Part shown: positions 8,463 to 27,570 of the stretch, in pieces
How the letters are laid out: each line of letters starts with the position of its first letter
Numbering within the stretch: position 1 is the stretch's first letter
Source: a virus
Taxonomy: Duplodnaviria > Caudoviricetes
Direction: 5' to 3' (one strand)
DNA: 64,000 nt
Virus record (IMG/VR): IMGVR_UViG_3300028886_000003
Location: 81,331 to 145,330 of that record
Notes under the pieces: generated by a model
Databases searched by the model: none
What the model saw: only the letters and a program-made list of their open reading frames with translations
Told to the model about the DNA's origin: nothing
Position numbers and translations under genes: made by a program

Positions 8463-9386
8463 TTATTTGGGTAACCATTTAAAATCTCCTGCTCTTTCTT
8501 TTACTTGATCTAGTGTTGGCATATTTGTTTGACAACCTTCTTTTTGTACAATAAAAGAGGCAACCGCTGATCCAAATATTGCACATTCTTCTATTGGCGC
8601 TCCATTAATAAGAGCATATAAAAATCCTGCTTGGTAAGAATCTCCAGCACCTGTTGGATCAACAGCATCAACTTCAAAAGGTCTAGTATTCCAATGACTT
8701 TCTTCATCTTTGGAAAATATAGTTGAACCTTTTTTTCCTAATGTTTTTACTACGTATTCTACACCAAGCTCAAATGGGTGTTGTTTTAATTTTTCATTCA
8801 TAGTGTAAAATTCATTTTCATTACAAAATAATATATCTACACCTTGTAAAACATCTGATAATTGTTCAGAACTATATGAATGTAATGCTTGCCCAGGATT
8901 AAAAGATACTATAATGTTATCATCCATACCTGTGTATTCTGTGCATTTTTTAGCATATGTTGGAGGTACTGTTGTAATATGTACCACTTCTGATTTATCA
9001 ATGCATTCTTTTGGAACAGGTGCTTTATTAAAATATTCAGATGCTCCTTCTGATATGTAACTTTTTTGAACTCCTTCTGAATCTGTAAATACAAAACATT
9101 CACTTGTTAAATCGGAAACAATTTTTAAATTTGCTAGACAATTATCATCATATTTCATATAATTGAAATAAACTGTATCTACAAAATCATAGCCAACAGG
9201 ACTATATAATCCTGTTTCTGCTCCTAACCTTGATGCAACAAGAGCTACATTTGCCCCTGTTCCACCATGATATCTATTATATTTTTGTATTTTTTGCGGA
9301 GAACCTTCATCTGCAAATTTTTCAACATTAATAATGTGATCAAAGTTTGTATGCCCAATTGAAAATATTTCATACATTATTATCAC
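8463..9386 (-). CDS. PfkB/ribokinase-family kinase (archaeal nucleoside kinase-like)
   Basis: GGTGANVA..ASRLG, FNPGQ, FCNENE, VKTLGKKGS, DPTGAGDSY signatures. Confidence 0.9.
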   Translation of the reverse strand: MIIMYEIFSIGHTNFDHIINVEKFADEGSPQKIQKYNRYHGGTGANVALVASRLGAETGLYSPVGYDFVDTVYFNYMKYDDNCLANLKIVSDLTSECFVFTDSEGVQKSYISEGASEYFNKAPVPKECIDKSEVVHITTVPPTYAKKCTEYTGMDDNIIVSFNPGQALHSYSSEQLSDVLQGVDILFCNENEFYTMNEKLKQHPFELGVEYVVKTLGKKGSTIFSKDEESHWNTRPFEVDAVDPTGAGDSYQAGFLYALINGAPIEECAIFGSAVASFIVQKEGCQTNMPTLDQVKERAGDFKWLPK

Positions 9387-9600
9387 TTCGTTTAATTAAT
9401 TTTTTTAATTGATGAACTAAATTATTGTATTTTCTATTTGCTTCCGCGGTAAGATAAATTTGATGATTTAGAAAATTAAGCCATTCTGTTGCTTTCTCTG
9501 GTTCATCTAATTTAAACATTATTGGATCTAATTCTTTATGTAAATCATGTATGTATATAGCATAATCTGTAGCTTCAAGATAGAAACGTTTTGATTTCAT
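9370..9600 (-). CDS. MTENKRF-like family protein
   Basis: MKSKRF start, ..LNFLN.. coiled coil. Confidence 0.55.
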   Translation of the reverse strand: MKSKRFYLEATDYAIYIHDLHKELDPIMFKLDEPEKATEWLNFLNHQIYLTAEANRKYNNLVHQLKKLIKRSDNNV

Positions 9601-9602
9601 TT

Positions 9603-10073
9603 TTAACCTCCTTCTTCGTTATTTTCTTCTTCATCATTAAGATTTATTTTAAAGTCTTGGACTGGAATTTCATGTCTATTACCATCATCATCGGTAACTG
9701 ATAGTGATGCATCATAATGTCCAAATAAAACACTTGGTTCATCATCTTCTTCGTTATTAAATAAATCTTCGAATCCATTAGGGACAACAGTATCGGATGG
9801 TACAATGTCTTTTGATGAAGGTGTTCCTGCAGAAAGTATTTTTTTTAATAACTGAAGAAAAGTGTGATCATGTTTTAGTTTAATTGCTAATACATCTTGT
9901 CCTCCTATTTCACCATATCCACACTCAATGTCATCAATAGGAATTTTATGTTCTCCGTCATCATAAAATAATACTAAATTATCAACATTGTATTCTTCTG
10001 ATGCTTCTGCTAGTCCTTCTTTTATTGTATCTAATACTTCAAAAAAATCTTTTAGTTTCATCATATATATCAC
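9603..10073 (-). CDS. acidic hypothetical protein
   Basis: ORF with internal repeat DDG..H.IP. Confidence 0.55.
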   Translation of the reverse strand: MIYMMKLKDFFEVLDTIKEGLAEASEEYNVDNLVLFYDDGEHKIPIDDIECGYGEIGGQDVLAIKLKHDHTFLQLLKKILSAGTPSSKDIVPSDTVVPNGFEDLFNNEEDDEPSVLFGHYDASLSVTDDDGNRHEIPVQDFKINLNDEEENNEEGG

Positions 10074-10379
10074 CTATATGTAATGTGGACAAATTGAGTC
10101 TAAAACAGGGGTTTTATGGTTAAAATTACATATTAATTTACCATCTCTGGTCCATGTGGTACGTCCACAGTTACCACAGCAACGAGCATTGCAATTCATT
10201 TGTTCAACTTCATCTATAAATTCTGATAAATTAGAGAGTTGAGTTTCTCGTTCATCTATTCTTTTTATATCTAAATATTCTCTTTCTACTTTGTCGAAAA
10301 AGTTTACATGTTGTTGAGCGTCCCATATGTGGAAAAATACTGCTTCAACATTATTCTTGTACAAAACTACATAAATCAT
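10074..10379 (-). CDS. hypothetical protein with C-terminal Cys cluster
   Basis: CCGNC...C...C; follows the promoter at 10415-10439. Confidence 0.55.
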   Translation of the reverse strand: MIYVVLYKNNVEAVFFHIWDAQQHVNFFDKVEREYLDIKRIDERETQLSNLSEFIDEVEQMNCNARCCGNCGRTTWTRDGKLICNFNHKTPVLDSICPHYI

Positions 10380-23444: not shown

Positions 23445-23598
23445 AGTAGTCTTTTATGTACCGAAGTAGTATATAAACCTATCTGTCCTCAACGTACAAA
23501 AAAGTACATTATTATTGAGTTGCACATTATTGCATTGAATACCGCGAACAATCAAACATATATATATAGTTTTTTCTGAATAATGTATACATTGTAAT

Positions 23599-23749
23599 GG
23601 GGGGGTATGGCAACCCCAGTTTCCTATATATATATCTATTTTTTTTTTATTCTATTGTTTATATCTTTTATTATAGATGGCCTTTTTTATATAGAGTAAA
23701 AAAAAAAAAAGGGTTAGGGGGGGGGAAACAAGGGTTGTATAACACCCCC
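23599..23749. other. ~150-bp imperfect palindrome, replication-origin candidate
   Basis: GGGGT..GCAACCC..GTTTCC..T-run-ATTCTAT mirrored by ATAGAGT-A-run..GGAAAC..GGGTTGT..ACCCC, in a divergent intergenic region upstream of the RHH and helicase genes. Confidence 0.5.
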
Positions 23750-23984
23750 TTCTTAAAGTTAGAAATATGTTACATTTGTGAAAGTGTGTTTTTGGGCTTT
23801 GATTGACGGGAAGGTTGGAAAAAAATATCATTTTAATTGATTTTACGATTGATAATTTTAATACTTTTTCATTTAAACCTTACTTTAATTAATGAGCTTT
23901 TTGATTATTCAAGGTATTGTTTATGAAAATGTATGTTTTTTGTATGTTGATATATATTGAATTGTTTTTGGGTGTAAAATATGT

Positions 23985-24974
23985 TTGGTTTTGGGGTGGT
24001 TGATAGTAAAGTTTATATATGATGTTTTTAATAGTTATATGTATCAATTTGTGGAGATGATATGTTTGAGTTTAAAGTGGAAGAGTACTGAGATTGGTGA
24101 TCATAGTTTGATGAGTATTAGTTTTAATGATGCTGAGGTTGATATTGCTATCACTAATAATGAGGCTAAGAAGTTGCAGGCGATTTTGAATGATATTAAG
24201 CATGATTATCGTTCTAATGTTGGTGTGGGTAAAGATTTGGAGTCTGAGGTTAGTGATAATGTTATTGGGCCTAAGGTTAAGGAAACGCTTAGGTTGTGGC
24301 GTGATCAGTTAAATTCTTTTTTAGATGATAATGAGCCTGTTTATTATTCTACTGATGGTGATTCTAGTTGTTTTTATGTTGATTATCAGAATAATGATGA
24401 GGATGTTCTTGATCTTTTGGCGGCTTATAATTTGTTGGGTTGTACTCTTAATGAAACTGAATCTCGGTTAGGGAACATGAATATTGAGTATATTTTGAAG
24501 AGGAATGATATTAGTTGGAGTAGTTTGCCTGTTGAGCGTTTTGATAAGCGTTTTGGTATTGAGAGTGAGATCATTGGTAGGGTAAGTGTGGATGCTAAGT
24601 ATGTTGCTGGTGTTAGTAGTGGTCGTGTTATTAATGATGTTGCTAATGATGTGGATTTACCTGTGTATATAGTTTGGGCGTGTTGTGTTGCAAGAGGTAT
24701 TAGTTTTGATATACATAATTGTATGACTGATAGTATTGAACATATTTATGTGAGGGTTGGGCCTAGTAAGATTTTTGATAGTAATGATGATTTTAGTATT
24801 CATTATAAGGATGCTTATAACAAGCTTGATAGTCTTGGTGGTATTAAGTTCTTGAAAGAGTGTAAGAGTAATGGTATGTTTCAGCGTGAAATAGCTAATA
24901 AGTATGGTATTAGTATTAGTCATTTGCGTAGGTATATTGTTAATATTCATAAAGAGGATTGGGGTGAGTGGTAA
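23985..24974 (+). CDS. hypothetical protein with C-terminal HTH
   Basis: GMFQREIANKYGISISHLRRYI; true start probably ~24057-24066, downstream of the TATA at 24007-24020. Confidence 0.65.
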   Translation: MVLGWLIVKFIYDVFNSYMYQFVEMICLSLKWKSTEIGDHSLMSISFNDAEVDIAITNNEAKKLQAILNDIKHDYRSNVGVGKDLESEVSDNVIGPKVKETLRLWRDQLNSFLDDNEPVYYSTDGDSSCFYVDYQNNDEDVLDLLAAYNLLGCTLNETESRLGNMNIEYILKRNDISWSSLPVERFDKRFGIESEIIGRVSVDAKYVAGVSSGRVINDVANDVDLPVYIVWACCVARGISFDIHNCMTDSIEHIYVRVGPSKIFDSNDDFSIHYKDAYNKLDSLGGIKFLKECKSNGMFQREIANKYGISISHLRRYIVNIHKEDWGEW

Positions 24975-25309
24975 TGGTTTTGCTTAAGGAGTTGTTTAAT
25001 GAGGCGTATACTAAGTATGGGTATAATAGTAATTGTAAGAAGAAGTCGCGTGTTATGGTGAAGTCATCTGAGTCTGGGTTCTTTAATATTAGTGTTGTTG
25101 AACGATATGATGCTAAGAAGGGTTATGTTTTTAGATATTCCTGGGTGGATGAAAATAATGAGCGACATCGTTCGGAATCTATTGATCTTTATAGATTACG
25201 TAAGAAAGTGTTGACTAATGGTTGGGATTGGGGTATTTATAATATACCTTTGGCTCATCAGTTATTGATGCGTTTTAATGTTCCTTATAATGTGTCTTGT
25301 TTAAAATAA
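24968..25309 (+). CDS. putative DNA-binding protein (AP2-like domain)
   Basis: SGFFNIS...KGYVFRYSW...SIDL..LRKKV...G.DW pattern. Confidence 0.5.
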   Translation: MVMVLLKELFNEAYTKYGYNSNCKKKSRVMVKSSESGFFNISVVERYDAKKGYVFRYSWVDENNERHRSESIDLYRLRKKVLTNGWDWGIYNIPLAHQLLMRFNVPYNVSCLK

Positions 25310-25630
25310 TTTTTCTTCTTTTTTTTATTGTTTTATTAGTGCTGGTTGCTTGGATATATTAAAGAAAGTTTTTTTGTTGTTTTTTGAGTTTTGATTGTGT
25401 TTTTTCGATATTAATTATGATTGTTTTTTTACTTGTTCTATGTATTGTACTGCTTCATATGATATGTATAGTATATTATATTTTTTTGTTTAATGTTCTG
25501 TGATTGGAGGCTATTTATTTGCTTGTTTTAGCTTGTGTGGCAGGATTTTTTTGTAATATTTTTTTGGCATCCCTTTATTTTTATGTCAAATATAATTTGT
25601 TTTCTCCTGGGGGAGGGGCGTTTTTTTTAG

Positions 25631-26178
25631 AAAGGTTTATATAGTAGTTTTGACAGATATTTAATTGCAAGTGTGTATGGTTGGCAAAAAAGATTTTATA
25701 CGAATGATTAAATTTATGGAGGAGATTTTTTTTCTTCTACGTGCTTTGGTTATTTATTTTTTTCTTTTTTTATTTTTTTTTTGGAAACATAAGTAACATA
25801 AATTTTTTTTATGTTTTTTATGGTAAAGTTTATATAGTAGTTTTGACAAATATATATTTGCTAATAAACTTAGTGGTTGTTTGATAATTAATTTTATCAA
25901 TTAACTATTTTTTTCTTTTTTTTTAGTAAAGTTTATATACTAGTTTTGATATATAATTAATTGTAATTTATTAGGTAGATTTTATACGAACGAAAAAAAA
26001 TGGAGGAGATTATTGTCTGATTAGTTTTCATTTTAAGAGTTCATTGGGAAGAATATTGTTTTTATTTGCATTTTTACATTCTCAGTATAGGTCTTATCTT
26101 GTTTGTTCCTAATGAACTCTATAACACCTTTTTTTAATAGAAAACTTTATATACTATTTTTAACAGATATATTAATTG
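25631..26178 (+). promoter_or_regulatory. four tandem homologous archaeal promoters (25631, 25824, 25927, 26141) without downstream ORFs
   Basis: Consensus AAAGTTTATATAsTAgTTTTgAcAgATATwTwATTG repeated four times, each unit ending in a T-tract. Confidence 0.7.
26036..26120 (+). ncRNA. putative sRNA hairpin A
   Basis: AGAGTTCATTGGGAA/TTCCTAATGAACTCT 15-bp stem enclosing a ~55-nt U-rich loop. Confidence 0.5.
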
Positions 26179-26220
26179 GAGAAGATCAAAATATCTGTAT
26201 TTTCTTCGAAATTCATTTTA

Positions 26221-26300
26221 AGGAATTCATTAGGAATATATTATTAATTTCGTTTCCTTTCAGTGTATTTTCTAATTTTACTTGTGCCTAATGAATTCCT
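26221..26300 (+). ncRNA. putative sRNA hairpin B (homologue of A)
   Basis: AGGAATTCATTAGG/CCTAATGAATTCCT 14-bp stem, ~52-nt loop; stems covary with hairpin A. Confidence 0.5.
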
Positions 26301-26941
26301 CCTCCTATTTATTTTTATAATGGAAAAAAACTTAACTATATATATAACGTCCAACAGACTATTTTTTGTGCATACTTAACTACTGTATGCATACATGGTA
26401 TTATGCCCCTTTTGATATTCTACTATTCGAAATAGCATATTACATAAAAAAATGTCACCTCCTATAAAACGTTTTAGCTGGGTAATTAATTTTTTACCTG
26501 GCTAAAATCAACTCCTTGCGGGGTCGATGTGAAATCACTACTTGTTCACTGTTTTTACTTTAATATTGAACATTTGTTTAATCAGTCTTATTTTTGCTAA
26601 ACACCATTTTTTGGTATATACAAGCATCTAGATGTGCCACGAAAGACATTTTGAGTTTGAGAACAAGATCAAATAAAACACACATATTCACCAAATACTC
26701 AATAACTATAACCCACCAATTAACCAAATAAAACGAAAGTACCCAAATAATTGAAGCTATTTTTTAGATCAAGATGAAAATCACACTAAAAAACACTGAA
26801 AAATGTGTTGAACAGTGCCCGTATATTAAAAATATCAGGTCAATTCGATAAAAAATATTTAGGCGCACCTAAAAAAACAGATGGAAACAAAAACCAGACC
26901 CTTGCGCGTATAAAAATATTAGAAAATAAAAAAACAAAAAT

Positions 26942-27091
26942 ATGAAAATCAACAACAAAACCATACTAATACTTGGACTAATAATGATCGCAATACTAAG
27001 TATGATATTTTACCATAAAGATGTAGCACTTGCAATAAGTAGTGGTCTAGTAGGTTACTTAAGTAAAGATAACCAACATAGTAAAACATAA
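26942..27091 (+). CDS. 49-aa small membrane protein
   Basis: Manual: MKINNKTILILGLIMIAILSMIFYHKDVALAISSGLVGYLSKDNQHSKT. Confidence 0.55.
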   Translation: MKINNKTILILGLIMIAILSMIFYHKDVALAISSGLVGYLSKDNQHSKT

Positions 27092-27097
27092 TAACGT

Positions 27098-27182
27098 ATA
27101 ATGATCCATACTCCTGCGACAAGTGTAAACCAACATAATATATTATTTAATACCAATTAAGAATAATGATCCATACTCCTGC
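27098..27182. repeat. 20-bp direct repeat x2 (period 65)
   Basis: ATAATGATCCATACTCCTGC at 27098 and 27163. Confidence 0.8.
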
Positions 27183-27249
27183 AGCAGGTATCTACAATGT
27201 TATATATTTATTTCACAAAAAAAATAATATTATTATGAGTATCTTTGTT

Positions 27250-27570
27250 TTATGCTTCAAAGAACTCTTTATTTACTCTGACATTAGACCATACAATAGC
27301 TTTTCTCATATATTCTTCATCTTTGTTATATCCTTCAGCCATATATTCTTCAACAGAATCAAAGCCTAACATATATGCAAATTCATCAGTCATACAACGA
27401 ATATCATACATAAAAGTATATTCAATAAATACCTCAGCAAAATATGGTTTACTAAAATCATTCATAAATTTATGATCTTTACCAGCAATAATTTTAAAAT
27501 CAGGTTTACGTAAACTTATAAATTTTTGTTTAGAACAAATTGGATCAATATTTTTCTTTTTCATTAACAT
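27250..27570 (-). CDS. hypothetical protein
   Basis: GGAGGT RBS. Confidence 0.55.
   Translation of the reverse strand: MLMKKKNIDPICSKQKFISLRKPDFKIIAGKDHKFMNDFSKPYFAEVFIEYTFMYDIRCMTDEFAYMLGFDSVEEYMAEGYNKDEEYMRKAIVWSNVRVNKEFFEA

Follow-up and report, generated by a model that had tools for sequence, protein, structure and literature searches.

The DNA analysed here, referred to as the window, comprises the right 64 kb of the 145,330-bp virus record IMGVR_UViG_3300028886_000003 (IMG/VR), a genome with 116-bp direct terminal repeats and a G+C content of ~29%. Within the window lies a gene-free island (25310-27165), the largest gene-free stretch in the 145-kb genome; longer gaps in the gene-gap listing were artefacts of the open reading frame (ORF) filter and were set aside in this ranking. 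The island is flanked by a rightward gene pair (24057-25309) on one side and by a long leftward operon, which ends at 27250, on the other. It contains four tandem promoters, P1 to P4, each followed by a short unit, T1 to T4, and we propose that the locus is probably a cluster of independently transcribed small non-coding RNA (sRNA) genes of the virus. Positions refer to the window unless stated otherwise, and the lengths of T-runs are spelled out to keep them apart from the names of the units. The promoters, with their B recognition elements (BRE), and the predicted units are:

25632-25667, plus strand: promoter P1, BRE AAAGG, TATA box at 25636-43, predicted +1 at G25667
25667-25733, plus strand: unit T1, ~67 nt, with module A AGATTTTATACGAA (25691) and module B ATGGAGGAGATT (25716), ending in a run of eight T
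25825-25860, plus strand: promoter P2, predicted +1 at G25860
25860-25914, plus strand: unit T2, ~55 nt, one hairpin followed by runs of seven and nine T
25928-25963, plus strand: promoter P3, predicted +1 at G25963
25963-26135, plus strand: unit T3, ~173 nt, with modules A, B and C, ending in a run of seven T
26142-26178, plus strand: promoter P4, predicted +1 at G26178
26178-26316, plus strand: unit T4, ~139 nt, with a relative of module B, module C and a predicted single-stranded tail, ending in a weak run of five T

Four paralogous promoters of the host type

The first-pass annotation of this sequence had described four repeated BRE-TATA-initiator units, and this was borne out. A degenerate 24-mer, AARSTTTATATASTAKTTTTRAYA, which describes the four units and was used to scan the window and shuffled sequences, was found on the plus strand at 25632, 25825, 25928 and 26142; these are the only four copies in 64 kb, and none was found in 100 shuffles. 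Outside the TATA octamer, P1 to P4 are 78% identical over 15 nt upstream and 70% over 26 nt downstream, compared to 37% and 34% for the other A-rich-BRE TATA sites of the genome. Judged by sequence, P1 to P4 are true paralogues, beyond being merely good promoters. The repeated unit spans the preceding T-run, the BRE, the TATA box, a spacer and a conserved (A)ATTG motif. In all four units the G of this motif lies 31-32 nt downstream of the first T of the box; the predicted +1 positions, each a purine after a pyrimidine, are in this fixed register. As in archaeal promoters of the Methanobacteriales type, all four boxes are exact TTTATATA sequences, with the BREs AAAGG, AAAG, AAAG and AAAC.

Methanobrevibacter chromosomes contain 74-92% matches to the viral T-run-plus-promoter segments, and the 24-mer of P4 recurs identically as a promoter-like site in a Methanobrevibacter metagenome-assembled genome, ahead of ~190 nt without an obvious ORF. 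In most of the eight host loci that were read, a ribosome-binding site and an ATG follow within ~25-115 nt, whereas no Shine-Dalgarno (SD) sequence with start codon and ORF follows any of the viral copies. Scans of viral, genome and metagenome collections with the promoter-unit pattern gave only ordinary, unrelated promoters of diverse archaea and one virus group. In this group (L005, L006, L007, L014 and L015) the extended promoter AAAGTTTATATAGTAGTTTTGATA is as in P1 to P4, and a ~75-nt hairpin-containing leader with a run of seven T, which may be an attenuator, lies between the promoter and the ribosome-binding site of a gene. A virus-encoded TFB able to read promoters of the P1-P4 type was not found in the window virus. 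A relative, G002 (L040; terminase 70% identical), encodes a TFB (TFIIB homologue) of its own behind a consensus promoter (G002 23577-24590), at the position of the non-coding region syntenic to the island of the window.

Promoters across the window virus consist of archaeal BRE/TATA boxes followed by GGAGG-type ribosome-binding sites. Among the genes of the virus are those for a portal protein and a large terminase of the T4 type; judged by the terminase (36% identity), Methanobacterium virus PhiF1 is its closest relative in culture. Because of the host-type promoters and a 39-nt element common to the virus and the genus (see below), the host is very probably a Methanobrevibacter, i.e. a gut or rumen methanogen.

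Modular units without credible reading frames

The stretches transcribed from P1 to P4 would be 52-173 nt long, hold no credible ORF and run into a T-run; the first reading had given 60-170 nt, likewise with a T-tract terminator and without a credible ORF. No ORF in the units is preceded by a ribosome-binding site, and no combination of SD, start codon and ORF is kept between paralogues. Runs of at least seven T occur 13 times per 104 kb of coding sense strand but eight times in this 700-nt locus, where they are placed at the expected end of each unit; only T4 ends in a shorter run. Behind T1, further runs of seven, seven and ten T follow at 25757-25782.

Three motifs are shared exactly between units and have no further copies in the 145-kb genome: AGATTTTATACGAA (25691 and 25977) and ATGGAGGAGATT (25716 and 26000) between T1 and T3, and TTCATTTTAAG (26027 and 26212) between T3 and T4. 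T3 represents the full form, with module A AGATTTTATACGAA, module B AUGGAGGAGAU and module C UUCAUUUUAAG, the latter with a 15-bp stem and a ~50-nt loop; in this module TTCATTTTAAG is accompanied by the stem 26036-53/26103-20. The 5' hairpin of T4 opens directly at the transcript start with GGAGAAGAT, a relative of module B (GGAGAAGAU in this hairpin), and the stem of its module C is formed by 26221-34 and 26287-300. With their shared modules, T1, T3 and T4 form a family of modular paralogues. The spacing between the motifs shared by T1 and T3 is 11 and 9 nt, respectively, and therefore no reading frame is conserved.

The fold of T2, a simple hairpin, has a z-score of -4.3, and 0 of 200 shuffles folded as well; the hairpins of T3 and T4 reach -3.6 and -3.5. 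The shared motifs, the T2 hairpin and the homologous T3 and T4 hairpins had all been noted in the first reading and were recovered. Two positions beside the TTCATT core differ between the stems of T3 and T4, with pairing kept in both cases (G:C to A:T and A:T to G:C), and the loops differ by several indels.

A fifth unit with a different promoter

Behind T4 we found a further promoter and unit that are absent from the first reading, as are the anti-SD-like motifs and the palindrome described below:

26320-26368, plus strand: candidate promoter P5, ATGGAAAAAAA-N6-TATATATA at 26320-26345, TTG start, predicted +1 at G26368
26368-26557, plus strand: unit T5, ~190 nt, fold of -47.2 kcal/mol (z-score -4.7), with UCACCUCCUAU at 26455-26465

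In the T5 region the plus strand folds better than the minus strand. Together with P1/T1 to P4/T4, the island would hold four, probably five, promoter-to-terminator cassettes. P5 is of a different class than P1 to P4. The combination TGGAAAAAA-N5-6-TATA occurs at three sites in the genome only; the other two head the structural operon (window 42109, plus strand) and a small operon ending in a viral histone gene (genome 59265, minus strand). The same combination heads the structural operon of the relative G001 (L043, about 8292, minus strand) and precedes the unit with the conserved motif TCACCTCCTAT in the relative L075, with a looser version in L076. This distribution suggests a virus-specific upstream activator site, and since the class also heads the structural-gene operon, T5 is probably expressed later.

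The T5 motif UCACCUCCUAU, which we take to match the 3' tail of 16S rRNA, is predicted to be largely single-stranded (probability of being unpaired 0.71), and so is its C/U-rich paralogue in the tail of T4, CCUCCUCCUAU at 26298-26308 (0.69). T1 and T3 contain the SD-like GGAGGAG, which could pair with CUCCUCC of T4 and T5 over 7 bp. The first reading had called this SD-like motif exposed and not followed by a gene; the latter holds, but the motif is not clearly exposed, because the copy in T3 is mostly paired in the predicted ensemble (probability of being unpaired 0.18) and that in T1 is half paired (0.49). The proposed pairing of T1/T3 with T4/T5 is further qualified by the use of such letters in plain terminator stems of relatives.

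The island and one cassette are conserved in related viruses

Homologues of the 336-aa protein that flanks the island are encoded on contigs of 135-150 kb. Relatives stem from SRR4435556, SRR30827655, ERZ28612972 and ERZ28653713; the contig of the closest lineage, L077 (96% identity), ends before the island is reached. Five loci that reach the island were fetched (identity of the 336-aa protein 75-76% in L073, L074 and L078, 51% in L075 and 46% in L076), and in all five a gene-free stretch of 1.0-1.7 kb directly follows the matching operon. TCACCTCCTAT is present in each of them, on the strand on which a hairpin and a U-run lie behind it; a correctly spaced TATA box is present in four of them (L073, L074, L075 and L078), whereas L076 has a looser one. 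The unit of L075 and L076 runs in the opposite direction to the flanking operon, with the order of promoter, motif and terminator kept. The unit of L073, L074 and L078 is predicted to be a 70-73-nt RNA with a 5' hairpin, the invariant motif and a terminator hairpin. The predicted probability of TCACCTCCTAT being unpaired is 0.94-0.99 in these three viruses and 0.48 and 0.78 in L075 and L076. In the terminator hairpin of L074 the sequence is replaced but pairing is still present; likewise, three paired positions of the 5' hairpin have changed between T5 (GUGCAUAC/GUAUGCAU) and L073 (GUGCAAGA/UCUUGCAU), and pairing is kept.

In L073 and L074 a second promoter-to-T-run cassette adjoins the TCACCTCCTAT unit. 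T1 as a homologue of this second cassette received no support from the alignment, and T1 to T4 are absent from the islands of all five relatives. Conservation in relatives, which the first-pass annotation had proposed as a check, was therefore found for the island and the TCACCTCCTAT cassette, not for T1 to T4. Since the relatives' islands carry TCACCTCCTAT cassettes, two cassettes in the case of L073 and L074, tandem small cassettes in the island are, on this comparison, a family trait, with one cassette conserved and T1 to T4 as a lineage-specific expansion.

Two further observations were made in the relatives. At about 9000-9220 of L075 and 9590-9770 of L076 (minus strand of the loci), and at about 24860-24900 of G002, a consensus promoter precedes a ~200-nt ORF-less stretch with a long-range GGAGGAUCU/AGAUCCUCC pair and, at its end, a tRNA-like minihelix (acceptor stem plus GGGGTTCGATTCCCC T-arm), which was not called as tRNA by ARAGORN. 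In L073 (about 10020-10310) and L074 (about 9340-9650), two TATACCCC-N-GGGGTATA palindromes flank a ~300-nt segment that is near-identical in both and contains no called gene.

A host-derived palindrome and other elements of the island

Between the T-runs behind T1 and promoter P2 lies an element that is also found in host chromosomes:

25784-25822, plus strand: 39-nt perfect-stem palindrome, as RNA a 15-bp hairpin with U-runs

It is 90-97% identical to a chromosomal element in at least 25 of 103 genomes of the genus Methanobrevibacter. The host copies (L044, L052-L062), one or two per genome, are always located just upstream of one conserved ATPase_2/STAND-like gene, whereas the other neighbour varies; they sit in the leader of the ATPase gene beside a TTTTTAAATA box. 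A second motif of the host leader, GTTTTATACGAA, resembles module A, which may be chance. The ATPase is far under the cut-offs for Orc1/Cdc6 and gives a weak match to the PADLOC candidate defence family PDC-S27. No other IMG/VR contig was found to carry the 39-nt palindrome, diverged versions are present in the relatives L073 and L074, and an Rfam search with the host element gave no match. The viral copy is most likely a borrowed terminator or insulator, or a site for a (host) regulator. An attachment site (attP) of a temperate virus was also considered; no PF00589 or PF00239 match was found in the complete genome, and in a virus without an integrase this role is unlikely.

Two further elements lie towards the edges of the island:

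25601-25629, plus strand: G-rich hairpin with a run of eight T, terminator-like, closing the upstream gene pair (24057-25309) and a T/G-rich spacer
27098-27182, minus strand: two copies of the iteron-like repeat GCAGGAGTATGGATCATTAT (CCATACTCCTGC on the plus strand), at the far edge of the island

A comparable T/G-rich tract ending in a G-run sits ahead of a promoter in G002. Repeats resembling CCATAC(T/C)CCTGCGC are present in 2-3 copies at the matching operon-side edge of the island in L073, L074 and L076, and in a looser form in L075; they could be binding sites of an initiator or regulator. The first gene of the upstream pair gave a weak C-terminal helix-turn-helix match and has one near-identical relative only among 5.8 billion proteins. 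The ORF listed from 23985 holds a promoter of its own (TATA at 24012), and its true start is probably the ATG at 24057 or that near 24112.

Searches for homologues and targets

In Rfam covariance model searches only tRNAs reached the gathering score, and the matches within 25300-27300 were at chance level (E about 6). Pattern scans of viral contigs with the lead-in of the T3/T4 hairpins and with a T5 hairpin gave nothing relevant. Searches for close relatives with the primase, a 113-aa protein and the 305-aa upstream protein returned just one 2-kb contig with 99.9% identity, from run SRR9008756, and T1 to T4 were absent from the terminase-derived relatives G001 to G003.

Predicted pairing of the T4 tail is stronger at start regions than inside genes (-9.4 versus -6.1 kcal/mol), as would be expected for any anti-SD sequence, and no single target is prominent. 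An antisense action of the T4 loop on the starts of the 'MTENKRF' genes was considered as well. Three of the top four matches of the loop are located in this gene array, with 7 + 6 bp and a 2-nt gap, but the energies are within background and the candidate is weak.

A probable viral small-RNA gene cluster

The first-pass annotation had suggested a modular viral sRNA locus, and this fits the data best: host-type promoters and T-run terminators keep a fixed register, and ORFs that are SD-led or conserved in frame are lacking; the hairpins reach significance (z-scores of -3.5 to -4.7) and show compensatory changes; and the relatives' islands hold promoter-sRNA-terminator cassettes at the matching place. 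If so, a tandem duplication of the unit of T-run, BRE, TATA box and initiator would have given rise to the four cassettes. Since P1 to P4 are of the host's ordinary strong type, the host RNA polymerase with TBP and TFB would fire them without viral help, probably early in infection, and the oligo-T tracts would end T1 to T4. The C/U-rich stretches of T4 and T5, CCUCCUCCUAU and UCACCUCCUAU, might then pair with SD regions and mask the ribosome-binding sites of selected or many mRNAs, with GGAGGAG of T1 and T3 as possible decoys or as partners of T4/T5 or of ribosomes. The palindrome between T1 and P2 would terminate or insulate transcription or recruit a host regulator.

Anti-SD small RNAs of bacteria act by pairing with SD regions, thereby masking ribosome-binding sites. 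As expected for such RNAs, the units have their own promoter and terminator and no ORF. An unpaired C/U-rich seed between varying flanks is found in T5 and its five homologues, T4 has only the paralogous tail, and the conservation of a seed is not applicable to T1, T2 and T3.

Several results weigh against this interpretation. T1 to T4 have no homologues in any collection searched (BLAST against the phage database, pattern scans of viral, genome and metagenome collections, the relatives' islands), and their structures therefore rest on one paralogue pair. The folds of the whole of T1 and T3 are not significant (z-scores of -0.8 and -1.2). T4 may run on into the T5 unit because of its weak terminator. 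No target could be demonstrated for the antisense regulators that the first reading had envisaged: the best BLAST-short match of T1 to T4 to the rest of the genome covered 15 nt of A and T only, lay within a large gene and was put down to chance, and RNAduplex against 141 start regions gave no outlier over background. GGAG/CUCC pairs also serve as GC-rich terminator stems in relatives, so some of the SD-like and anti-SD-like letters may be structural only. Finally, the strand opposite to TCACCTCCTAT carries a perfect SD with a start codon 4-9 nt on and an ORF of 1-13 codons in six of six viruses; in the window this is GGAGGTGA (26437-26465, minus strand), followed 9 nt later by ATG-TAA, a start directly followed by a stop, and comparable mini-ORFs are present in all five relatives. 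TCACCTCCTAT may therefore act on this opposite strand, but this reading is ranked lower because its ORFs are not conserved and that strand has no terminator.

Alternative explanations

The island could instead be a DNA-level control region (a replication origin, partition or regulatory site), in which promoters open the DNA or prime synthesis, as at the origins of the phages T7 and T4, and the RNAs have no function. It is the genome's largest gene-free stretch and contains palindromes, the iteron-like CCATACTCCTGC repeats at its edge are kept in relatives, a D5-type primase-helicase gene is located 2.4 kb upstream, and the GC skew shows a local excursion at 24-26 kb. We nevertheless consider this unlikely: the extremes of the cumulative skew are at 57 kb and 123 kb of the genome, where gene direction switches, and not at the island; the iterons lie ~800 nt past T4; a terminator for each unit is needless for priming; and an unpaired conserved motif between variable hairpins, as seen in the relatives, is a pattern of the RNA type.

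That promoter-gene units were duplicated and have since decayed, leaving the cassettes as pseudogene leaders without present function, appears quite improbable. In favour of decay, T1 to T4 are unique to the window virus, divergence is far greater in their transcribed parts than in the promoters, and T3 looks as if a T1-like unit had been fused to a T4-like one. Against it stand the retention of promoter, initiator register and T-runs in all four copies, the stems kept via compensatory changes and the cassettes of the same build kept in relatives, and no trace of coding remnants was found.

Very unlikely in our view are micro-peptides or translated leaders. The sole sizeable ORF, 39 codons in T1 (25678-25797), reads as a small hydrophobic peptide, but it would span runs of eight, seven, seven and ten T (~0.015 such runs expected at the coding-strand rate), has no SD and is not kept in T3. 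The SD GGAGGTGA and start codon on the minus strand are well spaced in six of six viruses; the mini-ORFs behind them, however, vary in length and sequence (M*, MQE*, MI*, 13 aa), and that strand has no consistent promoter or terminator, whereas on the other strand a terminator is present in five of five relatives and a TATA box in most. Hardly credible, finally, is a TBP/TFB sponge or an RNA mimic of host CRISPR repeats in anti-defence, both raised by the first reading: the promoters are near-perfect host consensus, but four sites are few against 27 A-rich-BRE TATA sites in the virus and many in the host, and BLAST of 25850-26600 against the 103 Methanobrevibacter genomes matched little beyond T-run-plus-promoter segments and gave no repeat-like multi-copy match for T2 to T5 at E <= 1e-5, although short or diverged repeats could escape this search.

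Comparison with known systems

Small RNAs encoded by viruses are known, as are anti-SD small RNAs. Clustered, paralogous, structured and abundant small RNAs with their own promoters and oligo-T terminators are known from adenovirus (VA RNAs), Epstein-Barr virus (EBERs), herpesvirus saimiri (HSURs) and murine herpesvirus 68 (MHV68; TMERs). Like the viral sRNA genes proposed here, they are grouped together in a non-coding region of a large viral DNA genome, but this is an analogy of layout only, since they belong to another domain of life, use RNA polymerase III (Pol III) or snRNA-type polymerases and share no homology.

Closer in build is the cuckoo or alpha-r14 sRNA family of Alphaproteobacteria (RSs0680/CcsR, C14/NfeR1), modular RNAs with the anti-SD motif CCUCCUCCC for which masking of the ribosome-binding site has been considered (PMC4615179). 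Its members are likewise modular, with 2-4 adjacent hairpin units and several paralogues per genome, and only the C/U-rich, anti-SD-like CCUCCUCCC is conserved between variable stems; the tail of T4 reads CCUCCUCC. In contrast to the viral units, they are bacterial and chromosomal and carry the motif in hairpin loops, whereas it lies in a single-stranded tail or linker in the archaeal virus. The loops of 2-4 adjacent hairpins with CCUCCUCCC that define the family were not found in the viral units, and there is no relation by sequence or Rfam. Among methanogens, masking of the ribosome-binding site was proposed for sRNA41 and sRNA154 of Methanosarcina mazei (reviewed in PMC5867862); these are also intergenic sRNAs with their own promoter and a proposed repression of translation, but they are host RNAs of another order, with known targets. 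Halovirus HF2, as described in PMC8707807, resembles the window virus as a tailed archaeal virus with direct terminal repeats and repeated intergenic promoter families; there, the repeats are scattered among genes, whereas the window has four tandem copies, each with a short, ORF-less, terminated unit. In the literature searched, no description was found of tandem self-contained sRNA cassettes in an archaeal virus, of a 16S-tail mimic conserved in a methanogen virus family or of a host-derived palindrome inside such an array.

To our knowledge, hardly any work has been done on regulatory small RNAs of archaeal viruses, and none has been described for any Methanobrevibacter virus. The sRNA-gene interpretation of the locus yields precise predictions for the starts and 3' ends of five RNAs and for a conserved seed of 11 nt, and at least six related virus genomes are on hand for comparison. 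The palindrome, with up to 97% identity to host chromosomes, ties the virus to Methanobrevibacter and draws attention to an uncharacterised control element that precedes a conserved ATPase gene in the host. It is tempting, though speculative and on balance improbable, to go further and assume that this family of ~145-kb viruses runs an RNA-based control of translation. In it, a conserved small RNA with the 16S-tail copy UCACCUCCU would mask SD sequences. The window virus would have enlarged the system to an early set, T1 to T4, with SD-like (T1/T3) and anti-SD-like (T4) members, and the late-promoter unit T5, which together would form a timed switch of host and viral translation; through the palindrome the cluster would be linked to the regulatory region of the host STAND-like ATPase gene, maybe a defence gene. 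If the anti-SD reading is true, viruses of methanogens would imitate the sequence with which the ribosome docks to mRNA and so reprogram translation.

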